Source: Rhodospirillales bacterium (GTDB lineage Bacteria > Pseudomonadota > Alphaproteobacteria > Acetobacterales > Acetobacteraceae). From it: a stretch of 64,000 bases of DNA. Both the position numbers and the translations under genes were made by a program. The notes under the pieces were generated by a model. The model was not told where the DNA came from, made no database searches, and worked only from the letters and a program-made list of their open reading frames with translations. Below, in pieces: positions 6,889 to 63,292 of this stretch; the first letter of the stretch is position 1, and every line of letters begins with the position of its first letter. The stretch is from contig JANPIH010000119.1 in the NCBI GenBank assembly GCA_031424895.1, positions 38,441 to 102,440 of the forward strand, written 5' to 3'.

Positions 6889-7018
6889 GCACGTTCTTTT
6901 TTGAAAAAAAGAACCAAAAAACTTTTCCCACTTTGCACCGCGTTCAAACAATCGACTCCGATGCAAAGTGATAAATTGTCTTTTTGCTTCTTTTTCTTCA
7001 GAAAAAGAAGACTCTTTC
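6889..7018. repeat. Family A AT-rich nested-palindrome element, copy A1 (arms H1+H2)
   Basis: H1 GTTCTTTTTTGAAAAAAAGAAC at 6893-6914. H2 CTTCTTTTTCTTCAGAAAAAGAAG at 6987-7010. Central stem CACTTTGCA/TGCAAAGTG. It fills the whole gap between two convergent stop codons (6886-6888 and 7019-7021). Confidence 0.9.
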
Positions 7019-7555
7019 TTACGTCCCTGCCTCCAGCAAAAGCAGCAACCCTTCCAGCACCTCCTCCGGCGGTGGCGGGCAGCCGCGCACCACGAAGTCC
7101 ACCGGCAGCGTGGTGTCCACGCCGCCGGCCACGGCGTAGCTGCCTTTGAACACGCCGCCGTCGATGGCGCAGTCGCCGATGGCGATCACGAACTTGGGGT
7201 CCGGCGCCGCCTCCCACGCCGCCAGCAGCGGCGCTTGCAGTGCGCGCGTTACCGGCCCGGTCACCAGCAGCACTTCCGCCTGGCGCGGGCTGTCGACGAA
7301 GCGCAGGCCGAAGCGGGCGAGGTCGTAGACCACGCTGTCCAGCATCCGCAGCTCCAGCTCGCAGCCGCCGCAGCTGCCGGGGTTGAGGGCGTGCAGCGAC
7401 AGCCCGCGGCCCAGCCGGCGGATGCCGGCCGCCTCCAGCCGCGCCGCGAGGTCCCGGGCAGCTTCGGTGTCCACCGGGGCCAGCGGCCGCGCCGCCGGGC
7501 GGGCGCGCAGGTTGCGCCAGACCCGGCGCAGCGGCGAGGGCGCGTCGTCGGTCAC
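7019..7555 (-). CDS. NuoB/HycG-like small subunit of an Ehr/Hyf-like complex
   Basis: GTG start overlaps the upstream stop (GTGA at 7552-7555). All four cluster cysteines are retained: SCGGCE, GDCAIDGG, GCPPPPEE. Confidence 0.85.
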   Translation of the reverse strand: MTDDAPSPLRRVWRNLRARPAARPLAPVDTEAARDLAARLEAAGIRRLGRGLSLHALNPGSCGGCELELRMLDSVVYDLARFGLRFVDSPRQAEVLLVTGPVTRALQAPLLAAWEAAPDPKFVIAIGDCAIDGGVFKGSYAVAGGVDTTLPVDFVVRGCPPPPEEVLEGLLLLLEAGT

Positions 7556-9039
7556 TGATCCATCCCCGCGTGTGAAATGCCGAAGGAGGCGCGCAGCAAG
7601 GGCCAGTCCGCGAGGTCCGCGCCGCGGGCTGCACCTTCCAGCATCGGCAGGTGCAGCCAGCCGGGATCGCGCTGGAAGGCCTGGGCGATCTGCCCGCCCT
7701 CCAGGCGCAGCCAGGTCCAGATGCCGCCGCGCGGCCCCTCGGCCCAGCCGAAGCCCTCGCCGCTGACCATCGGCAGGGTGGCGACGATCTCGCCGGCCGG
7801 CAGCTCCGTCAGCGCGGTCCGGACCATGCGCGCCGAATCGCGCAACTCGGCCAGCCACACCAGCAGCCGCGCCGCCGCATCGCCGCCCACATCCCTTGGC
7901 GCATTCCTTGGTGCCTCGCGCACCGGCGCCACGTTGAGGTCGTGGTAGGGCCGATAGCCCGGACTGCGCCGCAGGTCCCCGGCCGCCCCGCAGGCCCGCC
8001 CGGACGGCCCGCCCGCCGAGAGCGCCATTGCCAGCTTGGGCGGCACCACGCCCAGGCCTTCCAGCCGGCGCAGCAGCGGGGCGCATAGCCGGCCCAGTTC
8101 GGCGAGGTCGCGCGCCACGGCGGCGGCGGCGGCGCGCATCGCCTCCACGCCCTCCGGCGCGATGTCGGTGGCCAGCCCGCCGGGCACCACCACGTCCATC
8201 ATCAGGCGGTGGCCGAACGCCCGCGTGCCGGCCCGCAGCAGCGCCTCCCGATGTGCCTGGCAGTGTGCTGCCACCAGCGGCGCGCCGGCGGCAGCGGCCA
8301 GGGCGGCGATGTCGGCCAGGTGCATCGCGATGCGCTCCGCCTCCGCACTCGCCGCGCGCAGGGCTAGCGCGCGCGGCGGCGGCAGCGTGTCGCTGGCGGC
8401 CTCGGCGGCGCGGGCGAAGGCGATGGCGTGCGCCACCGGCGCGTCCCCGGCCAGCCGGGCGGCGAAGCGGCTGGCGGCGCGGGGCGACTTGCCGCGCATC
8501 AGGGCCGGGATGCCCTTGTGCAGCCAGCCCAGCCGCGCCTGCACCCGCGCGATGCGTCCGCCGCGCACGAACAGACGGAACTGCCCGGCCTCGGCGATGC
8601 CGCCGGCCATAGGGCCAATCGGCACCTGGTCCATCCCTTCCACCGCGGCTTCCGGCGGCACCCCGGCGTGCGGCGGCGGGCGGGTGACGAGCGGGGTCGC
8701 GACCTCCCAGGCGCCATGGTCCAGCCAGGGCCGGTGGTCCAGCGCGCCGTCGGCCGCATGGCCCCACAGGTCGCGCAGTGCCCGCTCGAACAGGATTGCC
8801 CCGGGCCGCTGCGGCGACAGCGCCGGATAGCGCCCGTCGGCGACCGGGACCGAGACCGCCAGCATCCCCTCGGCATCGCGCCACAGCGCATGCACCGACA
8901 GTGCATCGCCCCACAGCGCCACGAGGGACAGCCCCGCCTCCGCCCCCAGCGCCGACCATTGCCCGGGCGAGACCGGGTGGCGCGGCCAGGGCCGGCACGG
9001 AAGGCCGCCCTGCGCGCGCAGGCTTGCCGCGAGGCCCAT
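7552..9039 (-). CDS. fused NuoC-NuoD/HycE-like large subunit lacking the NiFe-ligand cysteines
   Basis: Starts MGLAASLRAQ... NuoC-like segment FERALRDLWG. GPMAGGIAEAGQFRLF and GWLHKGIPALMRG match group-4 large-subunit motifs. The CxxC position reads ARLAGDAPVAHA, and the C-terminus is ...SFGISHAGMDQ with no Cys. Confidence 0.85.
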   Translation of the reverse strand: MGLAASLRAQGGLPCRPWPRHPVSPGQWSALGAEAGLSLVALWGDALSVHALWRDAEGMLAVSVPVADGRYPALSPQRPGAILFERALRDLWGHAADGALDHRPWLDHGAWEVATPLVTRPPPHAGVPPEAAVEGMDQVPIGPMAGGIAEAGQFRLFVRGGRIARVQARLGWLHKGIPALMRGKSPRAASRFAARLAGDAPVAHAIAFARAAEAASDTLPPPRALALRAASAEAERIAMHLADIAALAAAAGAPLVAAHCQAHREALLRAGTRAFGHRLMMDVVVPGGLATDIAPEGVEAMRAAAAAVARDLAELGRLCAPLLRRLEGLGVVPPKLAMALSAGGPSGRACGAAGDLRRSPGYRPYHDLNVAPVREAPRNAPRDVGGDAAARLLVWLAELRDSARMVRTALTELPAGEIVATLPMVSGEGFGWAEGPRGGIWTWLRLEGGQIAQAFQRDPGWLHLPMLEGAARGADLADWPLLRASFGISHAGMDQ

Positions 9040-10235
9040 CACAGCGCCGCCGCCAATAGGGCGAACCAGCGCGCCACACCCGGCACCACGCCTGCCGCCA
9101 CGCAAAGTGCCAGCACCAGCGCCGCGGGAATGTCCGCCAGCCCGGGTTTCCACGGCGCCTGCCACGCCGCCCATGCCGCGCGCGCCAGCCCGCCGGCCCC
9201 GGCCACCATCAGCCCTGCCAGCCCCAGCGCCAGCACCGCTGACACCTCAGCGGCCTCCACCAGCAGCGCCAGCCCTGCGCCGAACGCCGCGAACGGCGGC
9301 AGCAGCGCCAGCCCCGCCAGCGCCGCCGCGCGCACCCGCATGCTGCCCGCCATCGCCAGCGGACCCAGCAGCACCGACCCGCTCAGGAGCAGCAGCCCCG
9401 CCGCCATCGCCTCCGGCCCGCCCAGACCGAACCCGACTGTCGCCAGCCCCGTCCGGAACAACACCGCGTCCCTGGCCGGTTGCGCGCCATCGCGCCACAG
9501 CGACGCGGCGGCCCATCCGAGGCTGGCCAGCCCCAGCACCAGCAGCGCCGGCCCGGGCGCGACCATTTCGGGGTGTGCCATCGCGACCACTCGCCCGCGC
9601 AGCAGCACCAGCAGCGCCGCCGCCCCGAGCGCCGGCAATAGCATGTCGGCATGGCCGCGCCCGGCTACGCTCGCCCAGCCATGCAGCGGCGCCAACCCCG
9701 CCAGCGGCGCCAGCCCGGCGAGCAACAGGATCCAGCCGAGCGTCAGCACCCCGGGCGGCAGATCGGTCGCGGCCCCCAGCAGGAGGGCGCCGAACAACGC
9801 CAGTGCCAGCGCCGGCAGCACGGCGCGCAACGCCCGGCTTGTCGCAGCACCCCCGCCGGCACCCACCTGCAGCAGCGCCAGCACCGCGGCCTCCAGCCCG
9901 ACCCAGCCGAGCACCGGCGCATCGGCCAGCACGGCCAGTTGCAACCCGGCCAGCACGCCGAGCATCTGCCCCGCGCGAACGCCGGTCCAGGCACGCCCGA
10001 GCCATGCCCCCAGCAGCCCCGCCAGCGCGACCATGATGCCGATATGCGCCGCCAGCGCATCCACGCGCAGCCCCGCCACAGCACCCGGCCGCCATGGCAG
10101 CGTCGCGGCCAGCGCCAGCGTTACTCCCGCCGTGCCCAGCGCGCCCCATCGCACGAAATCGTCGCGCCGCACGAAGGACAGCGCCACGGCCCCCGCCGCC
10201 GGCACCGCGACCACCGCCCAGGCCAAGGCGCTCAC
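9039..10235 (-). CDS. NuoM/N- or HyfF-like antiporter-type membrane subunit (short form)
   Basis: GTG start overlaps the upstream stop (GTGA at 10232-10235). Strongly hydrophobic 398 aa. Its stop overlaps the large-subunit ATG by 1 nt (TGATG). Confidence 0.7.
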   Translation of the reverse strand: MSALAWAVVAVPAAGAVALSFVRRDDFVRWGALGTAGVTLALAATLPWRPGAVAGLRVDALAAHIGIMVALAGLLGAWLGRAWTGVRAGQMLGVLAGLQLAVLADAPVLGWVGLEAAVLALLQVGAGGGAATSRALRAVLPALALALFGALLLGAATDLPPGVLTLGWILLLAGLAPLAGLAPLHGWASVAGRGHADMLLPALGAAALLVLLRGRVVAMAHPEMVAPGPALLVLGLASLGWAAASLWRDGAQPARDAVLFRTGLATVGFGLGGPEAMAAGLLLLSGSVLLGPLAMAGSMRVRAAALAGLALLPPFAAFGAGLALLVEAAEVSAVLALGLAGLMVAGAGGLARAAWAAWQAPWKPGLADIPAALVLALCVAAGVVPGVARWFALLAAAL

Positions 10236-10849
10236 GACGTCTTTCCCGATGCTGTCGCGCGCGCTGTCATCAGGCGACGTATCGGCAGCACCATCGCCGC
10301 CGCCGGCAGCGCCAGCGTCGCCAGCGCGACCGCCGCCATGGCGGGGAACACCGGCACCGAGACCAGCGCCAGCACCAGCCCGTTCTCGATCATCAGCACG
10401 CCCGCCACCTGCCCGGCCGCGTCCCGCCGCAGCGCCGCCGCCAGCCAGCCCGCCAGCACCACCGCCGACGCCATTGCCAATCCGGGTCCCGCAACCGGCG
10501 CCACCACCACCAGCGCCAGCCCGGCCACCCCGACTCCGGCGGCAGCCAGCCCAACGGACAGGCCCGATCCATCTTCCTCCAGAACCGGCGCCAGGGCGCG
10601 CAACCCGCGCGGCAGCGCCACGGCCTTGACCGCAAGCGCCAGCGCCGCGACCGCCACGCCTTGCCAACTGCCTTGCAGCCAGGCCTGGGCGAGTGCGGCC
10701 AGCGCCAGGCACGCCGCCTGCGCCGCCACCAGCGCCCCGATCGGGCCGACGCGCCGCGCGATCAGCAGCGCCAGCGCCAGCACCAGCATCCCGGCCCCGG
10801 CAAGCGGCAGGGCGGCGCGCGCCGCCTCGTCGAGCCATACCGCGCTCAT
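10232..10849 (-). CDS. HyfE-like small membrane subunit
   Basis: Starts MSAVWLDEAARAALPLAGAGMLVLALALL... 205 aa, multi-TM. ATGA overlap with the upstream gene at 10846-10849. Confidence 0.65.
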   Translation of the reverse strand: MSAVWLDEAARAALPLAGAGMLVLALALLIARRVGPIGALVAAQAACLALAALAQAWLQGSWQGVAVAALALAVKAVALPRGLRALAPVLEEDGSGLSVGLAAAGVGVAGLALVVVAPVAGPGLAMASAVVLAGWLAAALRRDAAGQVAGVLMIENGLVLALVSVPVFPAMAAVALATLALPAAAMVLPIRRLMTARATASGKTS

Positions 10850-11772
10850 GCCGCCCCGCGCAGGGCTTGGCCGGCGAACAGCACGCCGACGCCGAGTGCT
10901 GCCAGCAGCGCCGCCAGCGCCATCAGGGCCGGCACCTGCCCCGCCCGTGGCGCCGGCACCAGGGTGCGCAGCAGCGCCACCGCCGCCGCCAGCAGAACCA
11001 TCTTGGCGCCCCAGACCGGCAGGAAGATCAGCCAGTCGCCGATCGTCGTCGCCGGGTCGTGGCGTGGCGGTGGCAGCCCGGGCGGCAGCACCAGGGCGGC
11101 CAGCAATGCAAGCCACACCAGCCGCCGCAGTGCCTCCGCCGCCGCATCCAGCGCGAGATGCCGGCCGGACAGCTCGCCCGGCGCACCGCCGCCATCCGCC
11201 GCCGCGACCAGCAGCAGCGCCAGGCCCAGCGGCAGCAGTGCGGGCAACAGGCCGGGCGCCTCGTCGAACGGCACCTCCAGCACGGCCGGCAAGGCGGTGT
11301 CCCCGGCCGCCAGCGCGAAGGCGAACACCACGCCCAGCAGCGCCGGTGCGGCCAGCGTGGCGCGCGACAGCATGGCGGCGGCGCCGTGGCCTGCGGCGGC
11401 GGTGCCGGAATCCATCGCCCCCAGCACCGCCAGCGCGAGTGCCAGCCCGAGAAGCCCCACGATCACCAGCAGGTCGGCGGCCGGCGCCAGCGCCATGTGC
11501 GGGGTGAAGCTCGGCACCAGCGCGGCCGCCACCGCCAGCACCGCCAGCCGTGCCGCCGGCACCGCCCGCGAGACCGCCGAGACACCTTCACCCATCACCG
11601 GCATCTGCCCCAGGGCGCGCGCCGCGTCCCGCCACGGTTGCAGCACGGAGGGGCCGGCGCGGCCCTGCATGCGGGCCTCGAACCACGCAACCACCCCGGC
11701 CAGCAGCGGTGCCGCGGCCAGCACCAGGGCCAAATGGAGGATCTGGGCGAGGCCGGGCAGCAGCGCGCTCAC
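10846..11772 (-). CDS. NuoH/HyfC(HycD)-like membrane subunit
   Basis: GTG start, VSALLPGLAQILHLALVLAAAPLLAGVVAWFEARMQGRAGPSVLQPWRD, colinear with the HycD N-terminus (..RRGPGVLQ.YRD). GTGA overlap at 11769-11772. Confidence 0.75.
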   Translation of the reverse strand: MSALLPGLAQILHLALVLAAAPLLAGVVAWFEARMQGRAGPSVLQPWRDAARALGQMPVMGEGVSAVSRAVPAARLAVLAVAAALVPSFTPHMALAPAADLLVIVGLLGLALALAVLGAMDSGTAAAGHGAAAMLSRATLAAPALLGVVFAFALAAGDTALPAVLEVPFDEAPGLLPALLPLGLALLLVAAADGGGAPGELSGRHLALDAAAEALRRLVWLALLAALVLPPGLPPPRHDPATTIGDWLIFLPVWGAKMVLLAAAVALLRTLVPAPRAGQVPALMALAALLAALGVGVLFAGQALRGAA

Positions 11773-13580
11773 CACAGCCCGGCTCCATGCAGCGCCAGCA
11801 TCACGACGAGCTTCAGCCCGAGCAGCAGGGGTGCGACGCGGGCTGCGAAGCCCCGGCCGGGCCACGCCGCAAGGCGCTTGAGTGGCCATGAAGGTAGCCG
11901 CAGCCGTGGCAGCCTGTGGCCCAGCGTTCGCGCAAAACCTGCCGCGCCCAACTGCGTCGCCGGGTCGCCGAACGGCAGCCAGGAGGGGGACGGCGACTGC
12001 CCGCCCTCCCACGCCGGGGCCACCCGATGCCCCGCCGGCGCCCGCGCCCGCACCCCCAGCGCCACCACCGCCCCGGCCAGCGCCACCAGCAGTGCCAGGC
12101 CCAGCGGCGCATAGCCCTGCACCGACAGCCAGCCGCCCGGTGCCGCCGCCCCGGCCAGCATCGCCACCGCCGGACCCGCCAGCGCCAGCACGATCCCCGG
12201 CACCAGCCCGCTCAGCGCCAGCACGGCGGAGAAGGCCAGCATCGCCCAGCGCCAGGCCGGCCCGACCTCCTCGGCCGCTGCAGCACGGGGGGAGCGTGGT
12301 CGGCCGAGGAAGGCCACGCCCAGCCCGCGCAGGACCGCGAAGCCCAGCAGCGCCGCCGCCAGCCCCGCCGCCGCGACCACCGCCAGCCCCAGCGCCCACC
12401 ATTCCGCCCCGCCGCCGCGCGGCAGGGTGGTGGCGGCGCGCACCAGCAGCCACAGCCCGGCGAACCCCGCGCCCGGCGGCAGCATCGCCACTGCGAGACA
12501 AGCCGCCGCGGCGGCGGCGAAGGTGAAGCGCATGCGGTGCACCAGCCCGCCCAGCCGCGCGAGCGCCTGCGAGCCGGCGCCGTGTTCCACCGCCCCCGCG
12601 GCCAGCGCGGCCAGCGCCTGCGCCCAGCCGAGCACGGCCATCAGGAACAGCGCCGCGCCCAGCGCCAGCGCCGCCGCCGGCCCGTCATCCACGCCGCGTG
12701 CCGCCACCGCCATGCCGAGGCCCAGCGCCACCAGCCCGCTGCGCGCCACCGCCACCCCGGCCATCGCGCCACGCATGTCCCGCGCCCGTGCCGCCGCAAG
12801 CCCGCCCAGCATCGCCGCCGATCCGCCTGCCATCAGCAGCGGCAGCGCCCAGCCCGGCGCCAGCGGCCCGGCGAGGTCCAGCATGCCGCGCGCCAGGAGA
12901 TACAGTCCCAGCGTCGCCAGCAGTGTGCCCGCCAGCCCGCCGCCCTGCGTGCGCAGTGCGTGCGGCCAGCGATGCAGCGGCGCCAGGGCCGCCAGCGCGC
13001 CGCCCGCCACCAGCACCAGCGCCGGTGCCATCCCCGCGCCGCCCGCCGCCACCTGGGCACGCACCGCGGCGAAGCCCGGATCACCCGCCGGCAAGGCCAG
13101 CCCGATCACCAGCGCCGGCACCGCCACCCCGGCAAGCCAGGCCGGCCGCATGCCCCCGATCGCCAGGCAGGACGCCGCAACACCCAGCGCCAGCATCCCC
13201 GCCTCGGCCGCCAGCACCGCCAGCACCAGGCTGCCCAGCAGCGCGAGCAGCCCCGGCCCGGCGCCGCGCGCCAGCCCCGCCATGCCCACCGGCAGCAGCA
13301 CGACAAGGAAGAACGAGGCCAACCCGTCCAGCGCCAGCACCGGCCGCACCCCGGCCACGGCGAACGGCAACGCCAGCCGCGCCGGCACCGCCCCCAGCAC
13401 CAGATGCGCCAGCGCCGCCACCGTCCCCGCCCCGGCAAGCGCAAGCCCCGCCGCGCGCAGCTTCATGCGCGGCACGAGCGCGGCCAGAAGGGCGAGCACC
13501 ATCAGCACCGCCCCCCCGGCCGCCAGGCCCGGCAACAGGGCGGCACTCACAAGGGCGGAACTGGCCGAGGCGGCGCTCAC
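11769..13580 (-). CDS. NuoL/HyfB-like antiporter-type membrane subunit
   Basis: ~603 aa polytopic protein and first gene of the cluster. The GTG start at 13580 was chosen in frame; the start is uncertain because the ORF is open up to 13742, inside repeat B3. Confidence 0.7.
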   Translation of the reverse strand: MSAASASSALVSAALLPGLAAGGAVLMVLALLAALVPRMKLRAAGLALAGAGTVAALAHLVLGAVPARLALPFAVAGVRPVLALDGLASFFLVVLLPVGMAGLARGAGPGLLALLGSLVLAVLAAEAGMLALGVAASCLAIGGMRPAWLAGVAVPALVIGLALPAGDPGFAAVRAQVAAGGAGMAPALVLVAGGALAALAPLHRWPHALRTQGGGLAGTLLATLGLYLLARGMLDLAGPLAPGWALPLLMAGGSAAMLGGLAAARARDMRGAMAGVAVARSGLVALGLGMAVAARGVDDGPAAALALGAALFLMAVLGWAQALAALAAGAVEHGAGSQALARLGGLVHRMRFTFAAAAAACLAVAMLPPGAGFAGLWLLVRAATTLPRGGGAEWWALGLAVVAAAGLAAALLGFAVLRGLGVAFLGRPRSPRAAAAEEVGPAWRWAMLAFSAVLALSGLVPGIVLALAGPAVAMLAGAAAPGGWLSVQGYAPLGLALLVALAGAVVALGVRARAPAGHRVAPAWEGGQSPSPSWLPFGDPATQLGAAGFARTLGHRLPRLRLPSWPLKRLAAWPGRGFAARVAPLLLGLKLVVMLALHGAGLW

Positions 13581-13683
13581 GGGCCACCTTGGAAGGAGGG
13601 TTCGAACGGCACACCCCGACCCTAGCCGAAGCGGCCCCTGCGCCGGAAGCCGCCCCGGAGGGTGATGCGCTGAAGGATCCAAG

Positions 13684-13835
13684 AAAGGGAAGGCTGGGCT
13701 CTGCCCAGACCCGCCAGGGGCCGAGCCCCTGGACCTCAACATATTCTAATTATTGGGGTTCCAAGGGCCGCCGGCCCTTGGTGGGTCATCCGTGGCGCGG
13801 CTTCGCGCCGCGACGGCAAAGCCCTGGCCTTGCCT
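13684..13835. repeat. Family B element, copy B3
   Basis: GGGAAGGCTGGGCTCTGCCCAGACCCGCCAGGGGCCGAGCCCCTGGACC ... AT-rich loop ... CCAAGGGCCGCCGGCCCTTGG ... CGCGACGGCAAAGCCCTGGCCTTGCC. Confidence 0.85.
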
Positions 13836-13926
13836 ATTTCTGCCCTTTTTTCGCGCCTATGCCTGGGTGACGCCGGGCCGCGCGCCCGCTAAAGGTCCGG
13901 GTTCGCGACGAATGAGGGACGAGGCG

Positions 13927-19293: not shown

Positions 19294-20123
19294 GCACCGA
19301 CGCCGAAACAGTCGAGGCCATCGTCCGCGCCGCCGGCACCAGCTTTCACCGCGGCATGGCGATCCTGCCGCCGCCGCGGCGCCGGGCGATGTACGCCATC
19401 TACGCCTTCTGCCGCATCGTCGACGACATCGCCGACGAGGACTCCCCCTTCGAAGCCCGCAAGCCCCGCCTGGAGGAATGGCGCGCCCATATCGCCGCCC
19501 TCTACCGGGGCGAGACGCACGACGCCGTCACCCGCGAACTCCGGCGGGCCATCGAGGCCTATGCCCTGAAACGCGCGGATTTCGACGCCGTGATCGACGG
19601 CATGGCGATGGACGCCGAGGCCCCCGTCGTCGCACCCGACGAAGCCACGCTGGACCTCTATTGCGACCGCGTCGCCGCCGCCGTCGGCCGCCTTTCCGTC
19701 CGCGCCTTCGGCGATGCCTCGCCCGCCGCCGACCACGTGGCCCACCACCTCGGGCGCGCCTTGCAACTCACCAACATTCTCCGCGATATCCACGAGGACG
19801 CGCAGCGCCAGCGCCTGTATCTGCCGCGCGAGCTGCTCGCCGCCCATGCCATCCCGCGCGACCCGCTTGCGGCGCTCGTCCACCCCGCGCTGCCGCAGGT
19901 TTGCGCAACCCTCGCCGCCCGCGCCCGCCAGCATTTCGAAAGCGCATCGGCGGGGATGGCCCGGTGCGACCGCCGCGCCATGAAACCCGCCCGCCTGATG
20001 GGCGCCACCTATGCCGCCATTCTCGCACGGCTCGAAGCGCGCGGCTGGCATCGGCTTGACCAACCCGTGAAACTCTCGAAATGGGCCAAGCTGCGCATCG
20101 CGTTGCGGCATCTGCTGAGGTAG
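19290..20123 (+). CDS. hpnD: presqualene diphosphate synthase HpnD
   Basis: GTG start overlaps the hpnC stop (GTGA). SFHRGMAILPPPRRRAMYAIYAFCRIVDDIADE. Confidence 0.9.
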   Translation: MSTDAETVEAIVRAAGTSFHRGMAILPPPRRRAMYAIYAFCRIVDDIADEDSPFEARKPRLEEWRAHIAALYRGETHDAVTRELRRAIEAYALKRADFDAVIDGMAMDAEAPVVAPDEATLDLYCDRVAAAVGRLSVRAFGDASPAADHVAHHLGRALQLTNILRDIHEDAQRQRLYLPRELLAAHAIPRDPLAALVHPALPQVCATLAARARQHFESASAGMARCDRRAMKPARLMGATYAAILARLEARGWHRLDQPVKLSKWAKLRIALRHLLR

Positions 20124-20262
20124 AAGGAAAGCATGTTCTTTTTTGAAAAAAAGAACCAAAAAACTTTCGTCCCTTTGCACCGTGTCCGACCGGGAGCCGC
20201 GGTGCAAAGTGGAAAAAGTCTTTTTGCTTCTTTTTCTTCAGAAAAAGAAGATTCTTTCTTGC
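20124..20262. repeat. Family A element, copy A2 (H1+H2), between hpnD and hpnE
   Basis: H1 at 20135-20156 and H2 at 20227-20250. Central stem CTTTGCACCG/CGGTGCAAAG. Begins immediately after the hpnD TAG (20121-20123). Confidence 0.9.
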
Positions 20263-20269
20263 TGTTCCC

Positions 20270-21526: not shown

Positions 21527-21664
21527 GAAGGATCTTCTTTTTCTGAAGAAAAAGAAGCAAAAAGACTTTTGTTCATTTGCTCCGCGCGGGAGTGTTTCAC
21601 ACTGAGCAAATGAATAAAAGTTTTTTGGTTCTTTTTTTCAAAAAAGAACATGCTTTCTTCCTTC
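21527..21664. repeat. Family A element, copy A3 (H2+H1, inverted orientation), between hpnE and shc
   Basis: H2 (rc form CTTCTTTTTCTGAAGAAAAAGAAG) at 21534-21557. H1 (rc form) at 21628-21649. Central stem TTCATTTGCTC/GAGCAAATGAA. Begins right after the hpnE TAG (21524-21526). Confidence 0.9.
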
Positions 21665-21705
21665 CCCTTCCCTTCATCCCGCCATTGTCCTAATCACCAG
21701 CCATC

Positions 21706-47035: not shown

Positions 47036-47178
47036 AGGGAAGTATGTTCTTTTTTGGAAAAAAGAACCAAAAAACTTTCATTCCATGGCACTGCGCCCGA
47101 TCTGTTGAATACCGTTCTAATGGATAAAAAGTCTTTTTGCTTCTTTTTATTCAGAAAAAGAAGATTCTTGCTTTCTTG
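47036..47178. repeat. Family A element, copy A10 (H1+H2), in a divergent promoter region
   Basis: H1 variant GTTCTTTTTTGGAAAAAAGAAC at 47046-47067. H2 variant CTTCTTTTTATTCAGAAAAAGAAG at 47140-47163. Confidence 0.9.
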
Positions 47179-48317: not shown

Positions 48318-48713
48318 CGCGCGGAATGCTGAAGGCAGCGTACGCCTGTCGTTCTTGATGGCAGGGGCGAAGCAGGAAAGGGGCCACAGAGAGCAAGGGA
48401 AGGAATGCTTCCCCGAAACGGCCGGCGGCAAGCAAGGTAAGACTCGACAAAGAGGCAGAGAGGAGCAAGGAACTGCGGTCCCGTTATTTTCTCCACATCT
48501 TTGTAATTGTTTCCTTCATTGCCACTGCCGCGGCCCGGCGAGAGGAAGATGGGCATCTCTGTGCTCTCTGTGGCTCTCCGTGGTCTCTGTGACCGCTTCC
48601 CTTGCTTAACTCGCGCCGACGGACAGGGCGAAGTACATCAGTCACAGAAACGTGTCTTGAAAGGTTCGGCCCGCACTAGATACGTTACTAATATATAACA
48701 AAATGGAGCGGCC

Positions 48714-52799: not shown

Positions 52800-53594
52800 C
52801 TATTCTCCGATCGAAAGCAGGGCGCCGCTGGTGCGCGCGGCGCGGAACTGGCGGGCAAACAGCAGGATGGACGCGGCCGTCCAGGCGAGGTTCAGCCCGG
52901 CGGCCCAGGCCAGGTGGTCCCAATGGATCGTGCCGGTGTCGAGCACGGCGCGCATGCCTTCGAACACGTGCGCCGCCGGCAGGGCGAGCGCCACCGGCTG
53001 CAGCAGAGCGGGCAGGATGCTCACCGGGTAGAACACCGCGGCAAACGGCGTGATGCCGAACAGCACGCTCCACGCCAGCGCCTCCGCCCCCGCGCCATGG
53101 CGCAGGATCAGCGAGATGACGCCGAGCGCGATCCACCAGCCCATCACCATCAGGTTCAGTGCGAACAGCACCAGGATCGGCCCCATGGCGAACAGGTTGA
53201 ACGCATACAGCGCCCAGGCCAGCAGCACCGCCGGCAGCACGCCGATCGCCATGCGGATCGCGCTCATCGCCAGCAAGGCCGCCACCAGCTCCCACGGGCG
53301 CAGCGGCGAGACGAAGACGTGGCCGAGATTGCGTGACCAGATCTCCTCCAGGAAGGAAATCGCCATGCCCATCTGGCTGCGCAACGCCACCTCCCACAGC
53401 AACACGCCGCCCAGCAGCAGGGAAGCGGCGATCTGGCCCTCCACGCCGATGCGGCTGGCAATGAAGGCGGCGGTGAAACCCCAGATGAACATCTGCAGTG
53501 TCGGCCAATAGGCCAGCTCCAACAGGCGCGGCCAGGAGCGGCGATACAGGGCAAGATGGCGATACATCAGGCCCCAGATGCGGCGCAATGTCAA
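52800..53594 (-). CDS. ABC-2 type transporter permease
   Basis: 264 aa with 6 TM helices, starting MTLRRIWGLMYRHLALYRRSWPRLL. The TTG start abuts repeat A11. Confidence 0.8.
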   Translation of the reverse strand: MTLRRIWGLMYRHLALYRRSWPRLLELAYWPTLQMFIWGFTAAFIASRIGVEGQIAASLLLGGVLLWEVALRSQMGMAISFLEEIWSRNLGHVFVSPLRPWELVAALLAMSAIRMAIGVLPAVLLAWALYAFNLFAMGPILVLFALNLMVMGWWIALGVISLILRHGAGAEALAWSVLFGITPFAAVFYPVSILPALLQPVALALPAAHVFEGMRAVLDTGTIHWDHLAWAAGLNLAWTAASILLFARQFRAARTSGALLSIGE

Positions 53595-53718
53595 AGGAAG
53601 CGTTCTTTTTTGAAAAAAAGAACCAAAAAACTTTCATTCCATTGCACCGAGACTCGGCGACCAGCAAATGGATGAAGTTTTTTTGCTTCTTTTTGTTCAC
53701 AAAAAGAAGATTCTTGCT
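53595..53718. repeat. Family A element, copy A11 (H1+H3), between the ABC ATPase and its permease
   Basis: H1 at 53602-53623 and H3 (rc form) at 53686-53709. Central stem CCATTGC/GCAAATGG. It fills the gap between the ATPase TGA (53719-53721) and the permease start (53594). Confidence 0.9.
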
Positions 53719-54459
53719 TCACTTCGTCCCCTCCCGCCGGTTGCGTGCGATGTCGAGGAACACTTGTTCCAGGTCGTCGCGGTTGTATCGCGCGAGCAGG
53801 TCCGCGGGGCTGCCCTGGTCGACGATGCGGCCGGTTTTCATCATCAGCACGTGCGAGCACAGGCGTTCCACCTCGGCCATGTTGTGGCTGGCGAGCAGGA
53901 TGGTGCAGCCGGTGGCGGCGCGGTAGCGTTCCAGCCAGCTGCGGACCATGTCGCCGGTATCGGGGTCCAGGCTGGCGGTGGGTTCGTCGAGCAGCAGCAA
54001 TTCGGGGCGGTTGATCAGCGACTTGGCCAGCGCCACGCGGGTTTTCTGCCCGGCGGAGAGCTGGCCGGCGGGGCGGGCGAGCAGGTCGGCGAGGTCGAGT
54101 TCGGCGGCGAGTTCGCGGATGCGCGCTTCCACCCCGGGCACGCCGTAGAGGTGGCCATAGACGCGCAGGTTCTCGGCGACCGACAGGCGGGCGGGCAGCG
54201 AGACGTAGGGGGATGAGAAGTTCATCCGCGCCAGGGCGGCGAAGCGGTCGCGCGCCATGTCGTGGCCGAGCACGTGGATGGTGCCGGCGGTGGGGATCAG
54301 CAGGCCCATCAACATGGCGATGGTGGTGGTTTTGCCCGCGCCGTTGCCGCCGAGCAGGCCGATGGTCTGCCCGCGCGCCGCTGAGAAGGACAGCGCATCG
54401 ACCGCGAGGGTCTCGCCGTAGCGCTTGGTGAGGCCGCTTACGCGGATCGCATCGGTCAT
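53719..54459 (-). CDS. ABC transporter ATP-binding protein
   Basis: Walker A GGNGAGKTT, signature LSAGQ, Walker B LLLLDEP, H-loop ASHN. Confidence 0.9.
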   Translation of the reverse strand: MTDAIRVSGLTKRYGETLAVDALSFSAARGQTIGLLGGNGAGKTTTIAMLMGLLIPTAGTIHVLGHDMARDRFAALARMNFSSPYVSLPARLSVAENLRVYGHLYGVPGVEARIRELAAELDLADLLARPAGQLSAGQKTRVALAKSLINRPELLLLDEPTASLDPDTGDMVRSWLERYRAATGCTILLASHNMAEVERLCSHVLMMKTGRIVDQGSPADLLARYNRDDLEQVFLDIARNRREGTK

Positions 54460-57323: not shown

Positions 57324-58037
57324 ATGAACGAGAGGTTAGCGCCGGCCGCGCTGCCGCCCGGGCAGCGGATCTATGCCGTCGGCGACGTGCATGGCTGCCT
57401 GGACCGGCTGGAGGCGATGCACCGCGCCATCGCCGACGATCTGCGCGCCCGCCCCCATGCCGACCCGCTGGTGATCCACCTGGGCGACTATATCGACCGC
57501 GGGCCTGACAGCGCCGGGGTGATCGCGCGGCTGATCGCGCCCTTCCCCGTCGCGGGCGTGCGGGTGCTGAACCTGTTGGGCAACCACGAGGACCTGCTGC
57601 TGGGCGCGCTGGCCGGGCAGCGGACGGATGCGGAGGTGTGGATCGCCAATGGCGGCCATGCGGCGCTGTCCAGCTGGGGGGTGCCGCCGCGCACGGCCCC
57701 GAAGCGGTGGGAGGCGTTGCTGCCGCCGCCGCACCTGGCCTTCATCCGCGCGCTGGCGCTGATGCACCGCGCCGGGGGCTACCTGTTCGTGCATGCCGGG
57801 GTGCGGCCGGGCGTGGCGCTGGACAAGCAGGCGCGCCAGGACCTGCTGTGGATGCGCGAGCCGTTCCTGTCGAGCACAGCCACGCACGAGGCGGTGGTGG
57901 TGCACGGCCACACGCCGGAGGACGCGGAGCCGGTGGTGCGGGCGAACCGGATCGGGCTGGACACCGGGGCGGTGCTGGGCGGCAAGCTGACCTGCGGCGT
58001 GTTCGAGGCGGATCGGCTGCGGTTCCTCGGCACTTGA
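57324..58037 (+). CDS. metallophosphoesterase (PrpA/ApaH-like Ser/Thr phosphatase family)
   Basis: GDVHGC, GDYIDRGPDS, GNHE and VHGH motifs in the canonical order. Confidence 0.85.
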   Translation: MNERLAPAALPPGQRIYAVGDVHGCLDRLEAMHRAIADDLRARPHADPLVIHLGDYIDRGPDSAGVIARLIAPFPVAGVRVLNLLGNHEDLLLGALAGQRTDAEVWIANGGHAALSSWGVPPRTAPKRWEALLPPPHLAFIRALALMHRAGGYLFVHAGVRPGVALDKQARQDLLWMREPFLSSTATHEAVVVHGHTPEDAEPVVRANRIGLDTGAVLGGKLTCGVFEADRLRFLGT

Positions 58038-58089
58038 AGCAGCAGGCCCGCCGCTTGCCATGCGGGTGGGCGTCCGGTAGGGCGATGGC

Positions 58090-59103
58090 ATGAGCAGCAG
58101 CGTGGACGGGCCGGACGACCCCCTGGACATCGGCCGCGCGATCGACCGCCTGGTCCGCGCGCGGGTGCTGGTGGTCGGCGACGCGATGCTGGACCGCTAC
58201 ATCTTCGGCCGGGTTCAGCGCATGAGCCCGGAGGCGCCGGTGCCGGTGCTGGCGATGGCCAGCGAACTCGACGAACCCGGCGGTGCCGGCAACGTGGTGC
58301 ACAATCTGTGCGCGCTGGGCGCTGCCGTCGCGTTCGTCTCGGTGGTCGGCGACGATCCGGCCGGGGCGGAACTGACCGGGCTGATCGGCGGGCAGCCGGG
58401 GGTGGAGCCGTGGCTGCTGGTGCAGGGCGGGCGCGTTACCACCGTCAAAACCCGCTATGTCGCCGAGGGCAGCCGCCAGGGCGGGCAGCAATTGCTGCGC
58501 ACCGACCGGGAGGACACGCGGCCGATCCACCCCAAGCTGGCCGAACGGCTGCAGCGCATTGCGCGCGATGCGATGGCGGCGACCTCGGTGCTGGTGCTGT
58601 CGGATTATCGCAAGGGGGTGCTGGCGGGCAACGTGCCGGCACAGCTGATCGCCGCCGCGCATGCCGCCAACCGGCGCGTGGTGGTGGACATGCGCGCGAG
58701 CGACTTCGGCCGCTATGCCGGGGCGGATGTGCTGGTGCCGCACCGCACCGACCTCGACCCCGGCGCGGACGAGCCGCCGGATGGCGACGCGGCGATCGCG
58801 GCGGCGGCGCAGGCGATCCGCGCGGCGCACGGCATCGGCGCGGTGCTGGTCAAGCGCGGCGAGGAGGGGATGAGCCTGGTGGACGCGGACGGGGCGGTGC
58901 ATTTCCGCCTGGACCCGGCGCGGCTGGTCGACCTGTCGGGCGCCGGCGACGCAGCGGTGGCGACCATGGCGGCCGGGGTGGCGGCAGGGCTGCCGGTGCG
59001 GGTGGCGGCCCTGCTGGCCAACGCGGCGGCCGGAGTGGTGGGGGCGCGGCCCGGCACCGGAGTGGTGCGGTGCGAGGATTTGCGGGCGGTGTTGGTGGAG
59101 TAA
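58090..59103 (+). CDS. hldA: D-glycero-beta-D-manno-heptose-7-phosphate kinase (RfaE domain I, PfkB family)
   Basis: VLVVGDAMLDRYIFGRVQRMSPEAPVPVL is the typical RfaE/HldE kinase N-terminus. DLSGAGDA PfkB motif. Confidence 0.8.
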   Translation: MSSSVDGPDDPLDIGRAIDRLVRARVLVVGDAMLDRYIFGRVQRMSPEAPVPVLAMASELDEPGGAGNVVHNLCALGAAVAFVSVVGDDPAGAELTGLIGGQPGVEPWLLVQGGRVTTVKTRYVAEGSRQGGQQLLRTDREDTRPIHPKLAERLQRIARDAMAATSVLVLSDYRKGVLAGNVPAQLIAAAHAANRRVVVDMRASDFGRYAGADVLVPHRTDLDPGADEPPDGDAAIAAAAQAIRAAHGIGAVLVKRGEEGMSLVDADGAVHFRLDPARLVDLSGAGDAAVATMAAGVAAGLPVRVAALLANAAAGVVGARPGTGVVRCEDLRAVLVE

Positions 59104-59238
59104 GCAAGGCCTTCTTTTTGTGGACAAAAAGAAGCAAAAGAACTTTATTCATTGGACCGATGCCTGACGTTCTCGCGTACGCGAGAGAATAAAAGTTTTT
59201 TGGTTCTTTTTTTCAAAAAAGAACATCCTTCCCTTTCC
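59104..59238. repeat. Family A element, copy A12 (H3+H1)
   Basis: H3 variant CTTCTTTTTGTGGACAAAAAGAAG at 59111-59134. H1 (rc form) at 59203-59224. Central hairpin TTCTCGCGTACGCGAGAA. Starts right after the hldA TAA (59101-59103). Confidence 0.9.
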
Positions 59239-61217: not shown

Positions 61218-61777
61218 TGGTGCGCGCCCACGGGCTCGATCCCGGGCCGACGCAGCGGCCGTTGGCGACAGGCGCGCTGGCGGGGCTTCTGGCGTCGTTG
61301 CCGGCGATTGCGGTGCTGGAGGAGTTTGGCTGGCTGGATGCGCTGGCGCATGCCATCGGGGGTGCAGCGCTCGGCAGCGTGGCGGTGGCGCTGGCGTGTG
61401 CTGCGGTGCTGACGGTGGCGGGGCTGCTGTATGGGCTGCTGTTCGGGCGCGGCGCGAACGACCCGCTGGGCGGGTGGCTGTTCGGCCTGGCGTTCGGGTT
61501 CCTGCTGTGGATGCTGCTGTCGGTGGTGTTGCTGCAATTTCTGCCGGCGACCGAAAGCGGGCGGCCGGTGTTCATCGGGCGGCCGGTGATGGGGCTGCTG
61601 CTGGGGGCGCTGGTGTGGGGGGCGGGGCTGGGTGCCGCCTTCCCGCCGCTGCACCGGAAGCTGCGGGCGGGGCTGGACGATAACGAGATGGAGGAGCGGC
61701 CCAGTGCGGCCAAGGTGGGGCCGGAGGCGGCGGCGATGCCGGAACTGGGGCGGAACCCGAAGAAAGCGGTAGGGTAG
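61208..61777 (+). CDS. membrane protein of unknown function
   Basis: 189 aa with 4-5 hydrophobic segments. It is weakly similar in character to the N-terminal domain of the preceding gene. Confidence 0.55.
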   Translation: MISMVRAHGLDPGPTQRPLATGALAGLLASLPAIAVLEEFGWLDALAHAIGGAALGSVAVALACAAVLTVAGLLYGLLFGRGANDPLGGWLFGLAFGFLLWMLLSVVLLQFLPATESGRPVFIGRPVMGLLLGALVWGAGLGAAFPPLHRKLRAGLDDNEMEERPSAAKVGPEAAAMPELGRNPKKAVG

Positions 61778-61910
61778 GAAGCAGTTCTTTTTTGGAAAAA
61801 AGAACCAAAAAACTTTCATGACTTCGCACCGTGGCTGGAACACCAGCCTCGGTGCAAATGGATAGAAAGTCTTTTTGCTTCTTTTTCTTCAGAAAAAGAA
61901 GATTCTCCCT
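61778..61910. repeat. Family A element, copy A13 (H1+H2), between convergent stop codons
   Basis: H1 variant at 61784-61805 and H2 at 61878-61901. Central stems GCACCG/CGGTGC and GGCTGG/CCAGCC. Flanked by the TAG at 61775-61777 and the TAG (rc) at 61913-61915. Confidence 0.9.
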
Positions 61911-61912
61911 GG

Positions 61913-63094
61913 CTATAGCCCCGCCGCCTCCAGCCGCAGAATCGCCCGCGCCATGGCCTGGGCGCGCGGCACCAGGCTGTCGATGCGCAGGAACTCCTCG
62001 GGCGAGTGCGCCTTGCCGCCAACGGGGCCCACGGCGCAGATGGTCGGCGCGCCGACGGCGGCGGTGAAGCCGCTATCCGCGCAGCCGCCGGTGAATTCGC
62101 CGTCGGTGGCAAAGCCGGTGTCGGCGGCGGACTGCACATACAGCTCGAACAGTTTCCTGGCCGTGGGAGTTTGGTTGAGCGGCAGGAACTCGCCCTTGAT
62201 GGTCAGCTCCGCCTTGGTGCCGGGCACGAAGCTGCGCGCGATGATCGCCTCGATCTTGCCCATGATCTCGTCGCGGTCGGCGGGGTGGATGTAGCGCAGG
62301 TCGATCTGGCCCTCGGCCCAGGGTGCCACGGTGTTGACGCTCTGCCCGCCGGAGACGAGGCCGACGTTCAGCGTGATGCCGCGGTCGAGGTCGGTCAGCG
62401 CGTGGATGGCGGTGATCTTGTGGGCCAGTTCGCCGATGGCGCTGATGCCCTCGGAAAAATTGCCGCCGGAATGGGCGGCCTTGCCAGTCATGCGAAACGC
62501 GCTGAACACGCCGCCCTTGCGCCCGGTGACGACGTTGCCGGAGACGCGGCCGGGCTCGGAGTTGAACACCACGCGGGCGCGCCGCGCCTCGGCCTCGATC
62601 ACCGGGCGGCCTTCGGGGGAGCCGATTTCCTCGTCGCCGGTGAACAGGCCGACCAGCGGGGCCGGGGCGCCGCCGAACTTGCGGAAGGCGGCCAGCACGA
62701 AGGCGTTCATCACCAGCCCGGCCTTCATGTCGGCCACGCCGGGGCCATAGGCGATGCCGTCCGTGATGGTGAAGGGGCGGCGCTGCGTCTCGCCGTCCGG
62801 GAAGACCGTGTCGCGATGGCCCATCAGCACGATGTTGGTGGGGGCGTTGGTAAGGCTGGCGGAGGCCGGCTCGGCGCCGACCAGCGCGCGGATGCAGTCG
62901 CCGTGCCGGGATTGGGCCACGCGCTCGGTGGGGATGTCCTGGCTGGCGAGCCAAGTCTCGATCGCCGCACCCACCGCATCGATGCCGGGCTTGTTGTAGC
63001 TGCCGCTGTCGATGTCCACGGTCTGGCGCAGCAGGTCGATCATGGCCTGCTGCTGGCTGGCGAGCCAGGCGGTGATGGCGGATTCAGTGCTCAT
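61913..63094 (-). CDS. M20-family metallopeptidase (carboxypeptidase G2-like)
   Basis: Starts MSTESAITAWLASQQQAMIDLLRQTVDIDSGS... Motifs HRDTVF, GVADMKAG and GDEEIGS. The ORF 5' extension to 63202 is repeat A14 sequence. Confidence 0.85.
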   Translation of the reverse strand: MSTESAITAWLASQQQAMIDLLRQTVDIDSGSYNKPGIDAVGAAIETWLASQDIPTERVAQSRHGDCIRALVGAEPASASLTNAPTNIVLMGHRDTVFPDGETQRRPFTITDGIAYGPGVADMKAGLVMNAFVLAAFRKFGGAPAPLVGLFTGDEEIGSPEGRPVIEAEARRARVVFNSEPGRVSGNVVTGRKGGVFSAFRMTGKAAHSGGNFSEGISAIGELAHKITAIHALTDLDRGITLNVGLVSGGQSVNTVAPWAEGQIDLRYIHPADRDEIMGKIEAIIARSFVPGTKAELTIKGEFLPLNQTPTARKLFELYVQSAADTGFATDGEFTGGCADSGFTAAVGAPTICAVGPVGGKAHSPEEFLRIDSLVPRAQAMARAILRLEAAGL

Positions 63095-63156
63095 GACAGG
63101 GCTCCTCGTGACGCGACGCGACTGTCGCATCCTCGGCGGAGTTCGGCCAGCCTGGA

Positions 63157-63292
63157 GGAAGGAAGAATGTTCTTTTTGAAAAAAGAACCAAAAACTTTTC
63201 ATTCATGGCACCGTGCGCGATCATCAAGACCCGGTGCCATGAATAAAAAGTCTTTTTGCTTCTTTTTCTTCAGAAAAAGAAGAATCTTATAT
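63157..63292. repeat. Family A element, copy A14 (H1+H2)
   Basis: H1 (short form GTTCTTTTTGAAAAAAGAAC) at 63169-63188 and H2 at 63259-63282. Central stem CATTCATGGCACCG/CGGTGCCATGAATAA. Confidence 0.9.

Follow-up and report, generated by a model that had tools for sequence, protein, structure and literature searches.

Several described repeat systems come close to the one that we report here. In the REPIN/REP-RAYT systems (REP, repetitive extragenic palindrome; RAYT, REP-associated tyrosine transposase; Bertels & Rainey; Nunvar et al.; Di Nocera et al. 2013, PMC3733652), two short hairpin-forming palindromes stand inverted around a spacer. ERIC (enterobacterial repetitive intergenic consensus, ~127 bp) and RU elements (Delihas, PMC3184786, PMC2759123) are imperfect palindromes of ~130 nt with a family-wide spread. 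Further comparisons are offered by the Correia/NEMIS elements of Neisseria and the miniature inverted-repeat transposable elements (MITEs) with terminal inverted repeats (TIRs), by bidirectional intrinsic terminators, and by attC/VCR-type repeats. Here we analyse family A, an AT-rich, nested-palindrome repeat of ~135 bases, non-coding and hairpin-forming, in a 64-kb stretch of DNA from Rhodospirillales bacterium (assembly GCA_031424895.1, contig JANPIH010000119.1, positions 38,441 to 102,440 of the forward strand), which we call the window. A unit consists of two inverted arms of ~45 nt around a centre, and each arm is made of a [SAAG]2-3 tag, a perfect A/T palindrome of 22-24 nt and an A/T-tract box. 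We consider it probable that family A is an interspersed palindromic repeat of the REP/REPIN/ERIC kind, high in copy number and either mobile or mobile until recently, with Acetobacteraceae as the only named isolates that carry it.

The likeness to REPINs, already proposed in an original prediction made from the letters of the window, begins with the two inverted, palindrome-bearing arms around a spacer, which are indeed present. It extends to the folding of the whole unit into a long hairpin, to an extragenic and high-copy occurrence that includes singlet arms (79 of 445), to insertion without target duplication, to a lineage-restricted distribution, and to a short conserved tag (GTAG/CGTC in REPINs, [SAAG]n in family A) that stands beside a palindrome different in each family. 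The palindromes of family A differ in being A/T almost throughout, in a genome of 70% G+C; its tag repeats a tetramer, with the consensus [SAAG]2-3 followed by GTTC or CTTC and no GTAG/CGTC; and the unit has extra A/T-tract boxes and a third, central hairpin. Family A would represent a REPIN/ERIC-like system in a clade, the Acetobacteraceae, from which CGTC REPs have been reported to be missing. With ERIC it shares an intergenic location that includes positions inside operons (transcription of family A being presumed from location), a sequence highly conserved at non-orthologous sites, the occasional lending of codons to neighbouring ORFs, and the lack of a known mobilising enzyme. The host clade is a different one, and nested perfect palindromes and terminal tags belong to family A, not to ERIC. 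The conserved core of ERIC is central, whereas in family A conservation is in the arms and the centre is hypervariable; compared by eye with the ERIC consensus, family A differs in composition and shows no resemblance.

Family A resembles Correia/NEMIS elements and TIR-type MITEs in being small, non-autonomous and intergenic, with long inverted termini, a strain-variable presence and a presumed co-transcription with genes. By analogy with Correia elements, an RNA duplex of ~65 bp would be a natural RNase III substrate, and the long hairpin of family A is a plausible one. Correia elements duplicate a TA target and carry a site for integration host factor (IHF); family A has no TA duplication, as tested below, and its termini are self-complementary hairpins. 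With bidirectional intrinsic terminators it has in common the A-tract, G+C hairpin and T-tract on both strands and the enrichment between convergent genes, but it is dispersed, sequence-conserved and mobile, its conserved palindromes lie outside the core, the hairpin is its least conserved part, and copies also occur inside operons and in some divergent promoter regions. As in attC/VCR-type repeats, conserved ends enclose a variable, structured centre, units start at or over the preceding stop codon, and any function would be exerted through folded single strands. In contrast to attC, the ends of family A (GTTCTTT...AAAGAAC and CTTC...GAAG) contain no RYYYAAC/GTTRRRY cores, and its copies are of mixed orientation, flanked by syntenic housekeeping genes, and dispersed rather than arrayed by an integrase.

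The original statement that family A is not recognised as a catalogued family holds for the sources covered here. A search of the whole window against Rfam gives 0 matches at gathering score, and at an E-value threshold only sub-threshold generic long hairpins (miRNA precursors, plastid psbA 3'UTR). We find no description of family A in the searchable literature, including the Gluconacetobacter diazotrophicus genome paper, subscription-only literature, ISfinder and Dfam being outside our scope. If the one unit per 4.6 kb of the window held genome-wide, a genome of 4-5 Mb would carry several hundred to ~1000 copies, and family A would be a major feature of genome architecture in Acetobacteraceae, including the industrial acetic acid bacteria.

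Anatomy, folding and distribution

The palindrome patterns GTTCTTTTTTGAAAAAAAGAAC and CTTCTTTTTCTTCAGAAAAAGAAG, with up to three mismatches allowed, have 20 and 25 strand-matches in the window, respectively, and each has 0 in 100 dinucleotide-preserving shuffles. An nhmmer whole-unit profile trained on 11 copies recovers exactly 14 units in the 64 kb, and an arm-only profile finds 28 arms that form 14 pairs with no solo arm. All 14 positions given in the original prediction carry family A, and its estimate of ~1.9 kb, or about 3% of the window, compares with a computed sum of ~1.96 kb, or 3.1%. The window has a G+C content of 63-80%, and every AT-rich island in it is a family A unit except one at 48481.

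From left to right, a unit reads as a purine tag ([SAAG]2-3 plus ~3 nt), palindrome P1 (GTTCTTTTTTGAAAAAAAGAAC), CAAAAAACTTT, the centre, AAAGTCTTTTTG, palindrome P2 (CTTCTTTTTCTTCAGAAAAAGAAG) and a pyrimidine tag ([CTTS]n). On direct reading this is the layout that had been predicted, and the four central stems quoted with it (from copies 1, 2, 3 and 14) are correct too. Both halves are inverted, related versions of one arm, with ~80% identity between the two arm types. The centre has a median length of 50 nt and a range of 29-71 nt over the 106 copies measured; in window copy 9 it reaches 151 nt. Aligned over 114 full copies, taken from the window and ~50 other assemblies, the arms stay nearly the same across genera: almost all of their positions are either invariant or conserved in more than 90% of copies. 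The centres cannot be aligned.

There is strong support for compensatory changes inside both arm palindromes. Taken as local hairpins, P1 and P2 have 98.2% of their cells paired, and 9 of 21 pairs show two-sided changes, in 73 cells; none of 500 shuffles reaches these values, and controls slid along the alignment are 64-79% paired. At the pair that closes the loop of P2, 80 copies have CG, 23 have GC and 8 have UA. These C-G to G-C swaps compensate the local hairpin only, not a pairing of P1 with P2. Whole units folded as a single strand, DNA or RNA, reach z-scores of -5.1 to -7.6, and their minimum-energy folds are either one hairpin of ~65 bp or a cloverleaf of three hairpins closed by the tags; both occur, and each of the two strands can adopt them.

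The centre is another matter. It forms a single hairpin in 89 of 106 copies, and with a median z of -2.2 these hairpins beat shuffled sequences by far. The original claim of selection on structure in the central stem is unsupported. Where changes are clearly compensatory, they fall in the two arm palindromes and not in the centre; centres at shared sites diverge faster than their flanks, and centre hairpins weaken as arms decay (both below). In 53 copies in tandem context, the mRNA-sense strand folds no more stably than the antisense strand (p 0.06 for whole units, in the wrong direction, and p 0.76 for centres), and there is no G-U asymmetry of note. We therefore rejected RNA-level selection on the transcribed strand. 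Because sense and antisense RNA fold equally well, the symmetry looks like a DNA-level property, and the complementarity within the centre is equally explained by palindrome maintenance at the level of DNA or by template-switch mutation.

The junction of the right arm carries a further signature. The final G of P2 and the four bases after it make up GANTC in 62 of 125 copies, with no fixed base at N (T 22, A 17, C 16, G 7), as at window positions 7010-7014, 20250-20254 and 63282-63286; the left junction has it in 3 of 125. GANTC is the recognition site of the alphaproteobacterial CcrM methyltransferase, and in the window it is threefold under-represented, with 60 occurrences vs 175 expected.

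Scanned over the GTDB species-representative collection, an exact 36-nt pattern with six free positions and one R finds more than 115 stretches in ~50 assemblies among the matches listed (assemblies counted by contig accession prefix). The named isolates among the matches listed are all Acetobacteraceae: Acidiphilium rubrum, three Gluconacetobacter species, Neokomagataea, Roseomonas, Pseudoroseomonas and Rhodovarius. Metagenome-assembled genomes (MAGs) with family A are labelled Acetobacteraceae, Acetobacterales, Rhodospirillales, Asaia or Rhodovastum. The idea of a family reaching beyond the window is thus borne out by its spread over many genomes of one bacterial family. Three loci from MAGs labelled Janthinobacterium lividum (L036, L095 and L100; loci outside the window are numbered with L) also carry family A, one of them with a left-arm variant of the GTTCTTTCTTGAAAGAAAGAACCAAAGAAC type that is otherwise seen in Acetobacteraceae MAGs, and we suspect that these contigs are mis-binned. 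The whole-unit profile has 199 matches, 131 of them full length, in the window and 119 other loci, and a census of arms counts 445 in ~1.3 Mb from ~50 assemblies, with 79 unpaired. Arms that are near-invariant over 33-36 nt could be used as primers or markers for typing Acetobacteraceae.

Searches of other collections extend the picture. In PLSDB, two replicons of Pseudoroseomonas cervicalis match, with nothing annotated beneath the matches, in a search limited by the low-complexity filter of BLAST. A metagenome scan for relatives of the window gene at 36536-37738 finds two loci, each of them informative. The protein of the window's GH1 gene has no record by exact sequence. A Logan contig of 1326 nt (L124), identical to window ~20232-21557, carries an HpnE identical to that of the window and ends ~30-40 nt past hpnE on each side, inside the two flanking repeats. 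As this contig ends in repeats, family A appears to break short-read assemblies.

Family A inserts whole and without target duplication

Filled and empty versions of the same site show that the unit inserts whole, tags included, into naive sites and without target duplication. For copies 2 and 7, relatives with the empty site (L122 and L120, respectively) have flanking DNA 86-92% identical to the window. At the site of copy 2, hpnD and hpnE of L122 overlap (TGATG; GGCTGATGG); in the window the copy stands in place of CGGCTG, hpnD ends two codons differently at a TAG in the tag, and the ATG of hpnE is kept. At the site of copy 7, L120 reads GCTCAACC-G-TTGACCC where the window has an insert of ~165 nt. 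The opposite case is L116, filled at 2186-2312 and matched by an empty site at 58037-58090 in the window. The site of copy 11 is empty in L086, and the two co-directional genes that flank it overlap there by 1 nt. All the empty sites are without tags, and so the tags belong to the element. Further evidence of mobility comes from copies in predicted prophages. In IMG/VR, 33 viral stretches (L125-L157) carry the 36-nt pattern, and one of them (L131, at 11079-12522), which is from an isolate genome, has three copies in 14 kb, one beside a large-terminase gene. Phages could carry family A from one genus to another.

The original prediction had pointed to transposases of the IS630/Tc1 type, which duplicate TA. 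We find TA near both ends in only 10 of 121 copies, which is the chance level, with no association between the two ends. The longest direct repeats common to both flanks average 4.43 nt, vs 4.39 nt in mismatched flanks, and nothing of 4 nt or longer exceeds the control; these tests leave room for a duplication of 2-3 nt other than TA. We rejected TA duplication in the style of IS630/Tc1 or Correia elements, since TA follows adjacent gene ends instead. No autonomous parent appears among the 445 arms. A spacing above 260 nt is seen in only two convergent arm pairs, and what these enclose is a gene for an outer-membrane efflux lipoprotein and the cold-shock gene cspA.

Once inserted, arms and centres part ways. 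Across seven sites shared between close relatives, to which these comparisons were restricted, and with flanking coding DNA 83-92% identical, the arms agree at 470 of 486 positions (96.7%) and the centres at 222 of 334 (66.5%), where unrelated centres score ~55%. The arms thus change more slowly than coding DNA and the centre faster than the neighbouring intergenic DNA, a clean separation of arm constraint from centre hypervariability. For copy 6, the arms are identical in L120 and L121 (69/69) while the centre is 77-79% identical; for copy 3 and its counterpart in L122, tags, arms and flanks are alike and the centres unrelated. Centres are a little more similar within a genome (0.61) than between genomes (0.55). 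We infer constraint or conversion acting on the arms. A left-arm variant with three changed positions, GTTCTTTCTTGAAAGAAAGAACCAAAGAAC, is found in every aligned copy of one group of MAGs, and two of its three changes compensate within P1; its presence throughout the group requires turnover or conversion within genomes. The further the arms have diverged from their consensus, the more the centre hairpin tends to be lost (rho 0.26, p 0.006), which simple ageing of some copies would predict. In distant genomes, a shared site was discarded as a sign of orthology: about one fifth of such sites are filled in the other genome, roughly the background occupancy.

Gene boundaries and competing explanations

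Family A is extragenic, lying in the gaps between called genes, and it is biased to gene 3' boundaries. With gaps classified by a caller based on G+C at third positions, it occupies 36 of 86 convergent gaps (42%; median length 50 nt empty and 141 nt filled), 83 of 411 tandem gaps (20%; 19 nt and 160 nt) and 7 of 90 divergent gaps (8%; 132 nt and 312 nt), a difference in occupancy with a chi-square p of 1e-7. A filled convergent gap is, at the median, about as long as the element alone. In tandem gaps family A is an addition to the spacer; between convergent genes, as in copies 1 and 13, hardly any spacer is left besides it. Where an element end faces a converging stop codon (81 of 238 ends), the stop is mostly 12-20 nt from the palindrome, that is, at the tag boundary, a tightness due largely to short native spacers and to selection against hitting promoters. 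Relative to transcription in tandem gaps, orientation is unbiased (32 vs 21).

Stop codons at the ends of genes that abut an element are TAA in 35%, TAG in 32% and TGA in 34%, vs 11%, 28% and 61% elsewhere (p 3e-13), and the tag contains TA at 45% of ends that face a gene end vs 10% of those that face a gene start. Together, these figures indicate that stops are often recruited from the A-rich tag (SAAG to TAAG), and that the TA is not a target. An ORF terminates inside the element at ~10 loci. In L121 (700-940), the orthologue of copy 6, the tag stop TAA of L120 is GAA and the ORF extends ~30 codons into the repeat (...MFFFEKKNQKTF...), which is a natural case of the repeat adding a C-terminal tail. 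Family A in this way rewrites stop codons, and it yields spurious small "hypothetical proteins" and C-terminal extensions in annotation. It also enters operons, with copies on both sides of hpnE within the conserved hpnC-D-E-shc hopanoid cluster, and lands even where two genes are translationally coupled. Genes that overlap in relatives are set apart by it, and operon expression must be affected as a result.

The core of the unit, read on either strand as an A-tract, a G+C hairpin extended by CUUU/AAAG, and a U-run, has the form of a bidirectional intrinsic terminator as found in textbooks; P1 and P2, which are conserved most, are outside it. A simple terminator scan gives 13 hits vs 10.8 expected, with no overall excess, and a scan of seven copies for promoters of the sigma-70 type gives 0 sites. 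In many convergent gene pairs family A is the sole sequence between the stop codons, and with nothing else there, some leaky termination or 3'-hairpin activity of the inserted core may be expected, to which we would give an even chance.

As an interspersed palindromic repeat of the REP/REPIN/ERIC kind, family A could work as follows. The arms would be recognition modules for a putative trans-acting DNA enzyme that reads tag and hairpin on single-stranded or cruciform DNA; an HUH/RAYT-like enzyme, or another that makes no duplication, is a candidate mobiliser to which we would give somewhat less than an even chance. The constancy of the arms would come from the recognition requirement of this enzyme together with gene conversion and turnover, for which a genome at the density of the window would offer ~1000 identical templates of 33-36 nt. 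The symmetry of the centre would come from palindrome maintenance at the DNA level and not from selection on RNA, a palindromic centre being prone to indels, to template-switch "correction", or to swapping by recombination between arms. After insertion, the A-tract, G+C hairpin and T-tract would act as a leaky bidirectional terminator or as a 3' hairpin.

Several observations weigh against this explanation. In the ~1.3 Mb searched, made up of 64 kb of this genome and fragments of 8-22 kb of others, we identified no mobilising gene, saw no RAYT and found no arm pair that encloses a transposase, and RAYTs are reported to be rare in Alphaproteobacteria (PMC5581495). The two best filled/empty junctions lose 1-6 target bases, and there is no common target motif in only three cases. 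No near-identical sibling copies were seen, the highest centre identity between any two window copies being 73%, which gives no sign of recent bursts. Perfect arms at orthologous sites, as in copy 6, could reflect a function of the arms for the host. Finally, a strong or general role in termination is contradicted by the copies in hpnC-D-E-shc and by the split gene pair of copy 11; with seven divergent gaps also occupied, family A is not a strong, obligatory terminator.

That last point bears on a different explanation, in which family A is a host cis-regulatory module, a portable bidirectional terminator or mRNA 3'-end hairpin kept by selection, and its mobility is incidental or ancient. We regard this as unlikely. 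It would account for a terminator form legible on both strands, for an occupancy that peaks in convergent gaps and is lowest in divergent ones, for convergent spacers that are essentially nothing but family A (copies 1 and 13, and the median filled gap), and for arms conserved at orthologous sites. It does not sit well with copies inside the hopanoid cluster and between genes that overlap at the empty sites (hpnD/hpnE, hpnE/shc and the pair of copy 11), with the occupied divergent gaps, with the unbiased orientation in tandem gaps, or with a terminator scan at nearly the expected count; the mRNA-sense strand folds no better than the antisense, and the hairpin critical for termination is the least conserved part of the unit while the palindromes outside the core are the most conserved. 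The absence of target-site duplication, for TA and for repeats of 4 nt or longer alike, tells against a TIR-type MITE, by which we mean an internally deleted DDE insertion sequence (IS630/Tc1, IS5 or similar) moved by the transposase of its parent. A small, non-coding unit with inverted termini of ~45 nt, ~80% identical between arm types, and a presence that varies among relatives and includes prophages is what such an element would look like. However, TA tracks gene ends, no parent insertion sequence with these ends occurs in the ~1.3 Mb from ~50 assemblies, and each terminus is a perfect hairpin kept by compensation, which is typical of systems that recognise hairpins and not of DDE TIRs; we consider a MITE quite improbable.

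The arms might instead be an array of binding sites for an abundant host protein that binds or modifies DNA (a nucleoid protein, gyrase or IHF, as for BIMEs, or one linked to CcrM) and organises supercoiling or methylation where genes end. Near-invariant AT-rich palindromes in a 70% G+C genome, conserved in situ, invite this idea, as do the junction GANTC kept in half of the copies despite the scarcity of GANTC and the enrichment between convergent genes, where positive supercoils meet. But a single genome has P1 and P2 in more than one symmetric variant, which fits base-pairing better than recognition by a single protein; only half of the copies have GANTC, and just one of the two ends shows it; and units are plainly inserted and lost between close relatives. 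We think this very unlikely. The readings of the units as genes, either small ORFs (MFFFEKKNQKTF...) behind a GGAAGG resembling a Shine-Dalgarno sequence or small RNAs, or as boundaries of integron cassettes of the attC type, are effectively refuted by frame, orientation and context, and we give them next to no weight. GGAAGG is followed by ATG, GTG or TTG at P1 in 39 of 113 copies, leaving 65% with no start codon, and the distance between arms is random modulo 3 (46/37/30). We rejected the small ORF accordingly, neither start codon nor reading frame being conserved. Promoter-like signals are absent from the copies scanned, and Rfam offers generic hairpins below threshold only. The conserved ends around a variable, structured centre and the distances of 1.35 kb and 2.65 kb from some copies to the next do recall attC sites and cassette arrays, against which stand the mixed orientation of the scattered copies, the syntenic housekeeping genes that flank them, and, on direct reading, ends that misfit the RYYYAAC/GTTRRRY core sites. 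The cassette reading of the 1.35 kb spacings was also rejected on counts: five adjacent gaps are occupied vs ~3.4 expected, a rough estimate from 14 of ~55 occupied gaps.

Shared tags of family G, and features of the window

A second family, G, is a GC-rich nested palindrome composed of the tag, CCAGGG(G)CnnnGCCC(C)TGG (or CTGGGCnnnGCCCAG), ACCC(C)GCC, the mirror image of these, and a CCTT tag. In L117, from a relative without any family A, family G is at the exact position between the PfkB and GH1 genes that family A holds in the window (copy 12) and in L116, and in all three GGAACCC comes immediately after the right tag. We found 34 family G palindromes in several Acetobacteraceae loci, 22 of them preceded by ...SAAGG. 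The family G copy at 13680 in the window is missing from L122. GSAAGSAAG occurs 8 times in the window vs 2.0 expected.

Families A and G have unrelated palindromes and the same terminal tags, and in this they resemble REP superfamilies with their GTAG/CGTC-tag logic (PMC3733652). The shared tags and the shared position point to a putative common machinery. We tentatively suggest, as a doubtful but possible extension, that A and G form a superfamily of "[SAAG]n-tagged" nested-palindrome replicators in Acetobacteraceae, with a shared machinery for mobilisation or exchange that reads the tag plus any adjacent hairpin. This putative machinery could be a new HUH-type enzyme or a recombinase, and the junction GANTC might couple it to CcrM methylation. 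Whatever lies between the tags might be swapped like a cassette, which would explain unrelated centres at otherwise conserved sites. With a tag shared by a second family, the search for the mobiliser becomes well-posed. The copies of both families are collected in Table 1.

Table 1. Copies of family A, their parts, and copies of family G. Positions are in the window unless a locus is named; profile match refers to the whole-unit nhmmer profile.
Feature	Position	Strand	Profile match	Context and remarks
Copy 1	6881-7024	+	6881-7020	between convergent genes; both neighbours' stop codons inside the terminal tags (TAA 6886-6888; TTA 7019-7021)
Copy 1, palindrome P1	6893-6914			
Copy 1, palindrome P2	6987-7010			
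Copy 2	20118-20269	+	20125-20260	between hpnD and hpnE
Copy 2, left purine tag	20118-20134	+		GAGGTAGAAGGAAAGCAT, [SAAG]n type; holds hpnD stop TAG 20121-20123
Copy 2, palindrome P1	20135-20156	+		GTTCTTTTTTGAAAAAAAGAAC
Copy 2, A-tract box	20157-20167	+		CAAAAAACTTT
Copy 2, central hairpin	20168-20214	+		variable, G+C-containing
Copy 2, T-tract box	20215-20226	+		AAAGTCTTTTTG
Copy 2, palindrome P2	20227-20250	+		CTTCTTTTTCTTCAGAAAAAGAAG; last G + ATTC = GANTC site
Copy 2, right pyrimidine tag	20251-20269	+		ATTCTTTCTTGCTGTTCCC; reaches hpnE ATG at 20270
Copy 3	21524-21668	-	21525-21660	between hpnE and the squalene-hopene cyclase gene
Copy 4	27252-27400	.	27254-27397	right-type arms at both ends (27263-27286, 27364-27387); minus-strand ORF 27299-28771 extends into it; L122 filled at the same site
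Copy 5	28629-28757	-	28629-28753	P1 (left palindrome) degenerate; adjoins stop codon of gene 28755-29492; L122 filled at the same site
Copy 6	36394-36531	-	36394-36529	orthologous in L120 and L121
Copy 7	37745-37890	+	37747-37881	between divergent genes
Copy 8	41716-41820	-	41721-41814	very short centre, unit ~100 nt
Copy 9	44366-44614	.	44368-44612	right-type arms at both ends; 151-nt centre
Copy 10	47034-47176	+	47034-47173	between divergent genes
Copy 11	53590-53721	+	53596-53719	between two co-directional genes, which look like ABC-transporter ATPase and permease
Copy 12	59101-59236	-	59104-59234	between PfkB-kinase and GH1 genes
Copy 13	61773-61912	+	61774-61910	between convergent genes; fills the entire gap; flanking stop codons 61775-61777 and 61913-61915
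Copy 14	63157-63294	+	63158-63289	P1 of 20 nt
Family G	~3950-4040			
Family G	5823-6000			
Family G	13680-13870			
Family G	43729-43885			
Family G	L117:4876-5114			
Family G	L046:6797-6977			
Family G	L004:1870-1910			

The long centre of copy 9 (window 44420-44560) is G+C-rich and has a GGAAGGAAG tag of its own at 44460, with a short palindrome after it (GCGTCGATTGCTTCGCC...); a second tagged element may have inserted here, inside the first. The AT-rich island unrelated to family A (48481-48524, within 48388-48530) is preceded by a tag-like GGCAAGCAAGG at 48427-48437 and by several AAGG/GCAAGG motifs.

Other features of the window concern its genes and composition. Six overlapping minus-strand genes at 7019-13580 have an unusually high G+C content of 74-80%, and the syntenic copy in L122 includes a Proton_antipo_M subunit (Mrp/Nuo-type antiporter). 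A segment of ~630 nt at 23628-24258, with an ORF of 114 aa (23634-23975), is missing from the otherwise collinear L122. The cumulative GC skew has its minimum near 30-31 kb, with a change of sign in the region ~29000-32000, which could mark a replication origin or terminus or could reflect gene-strand composition.

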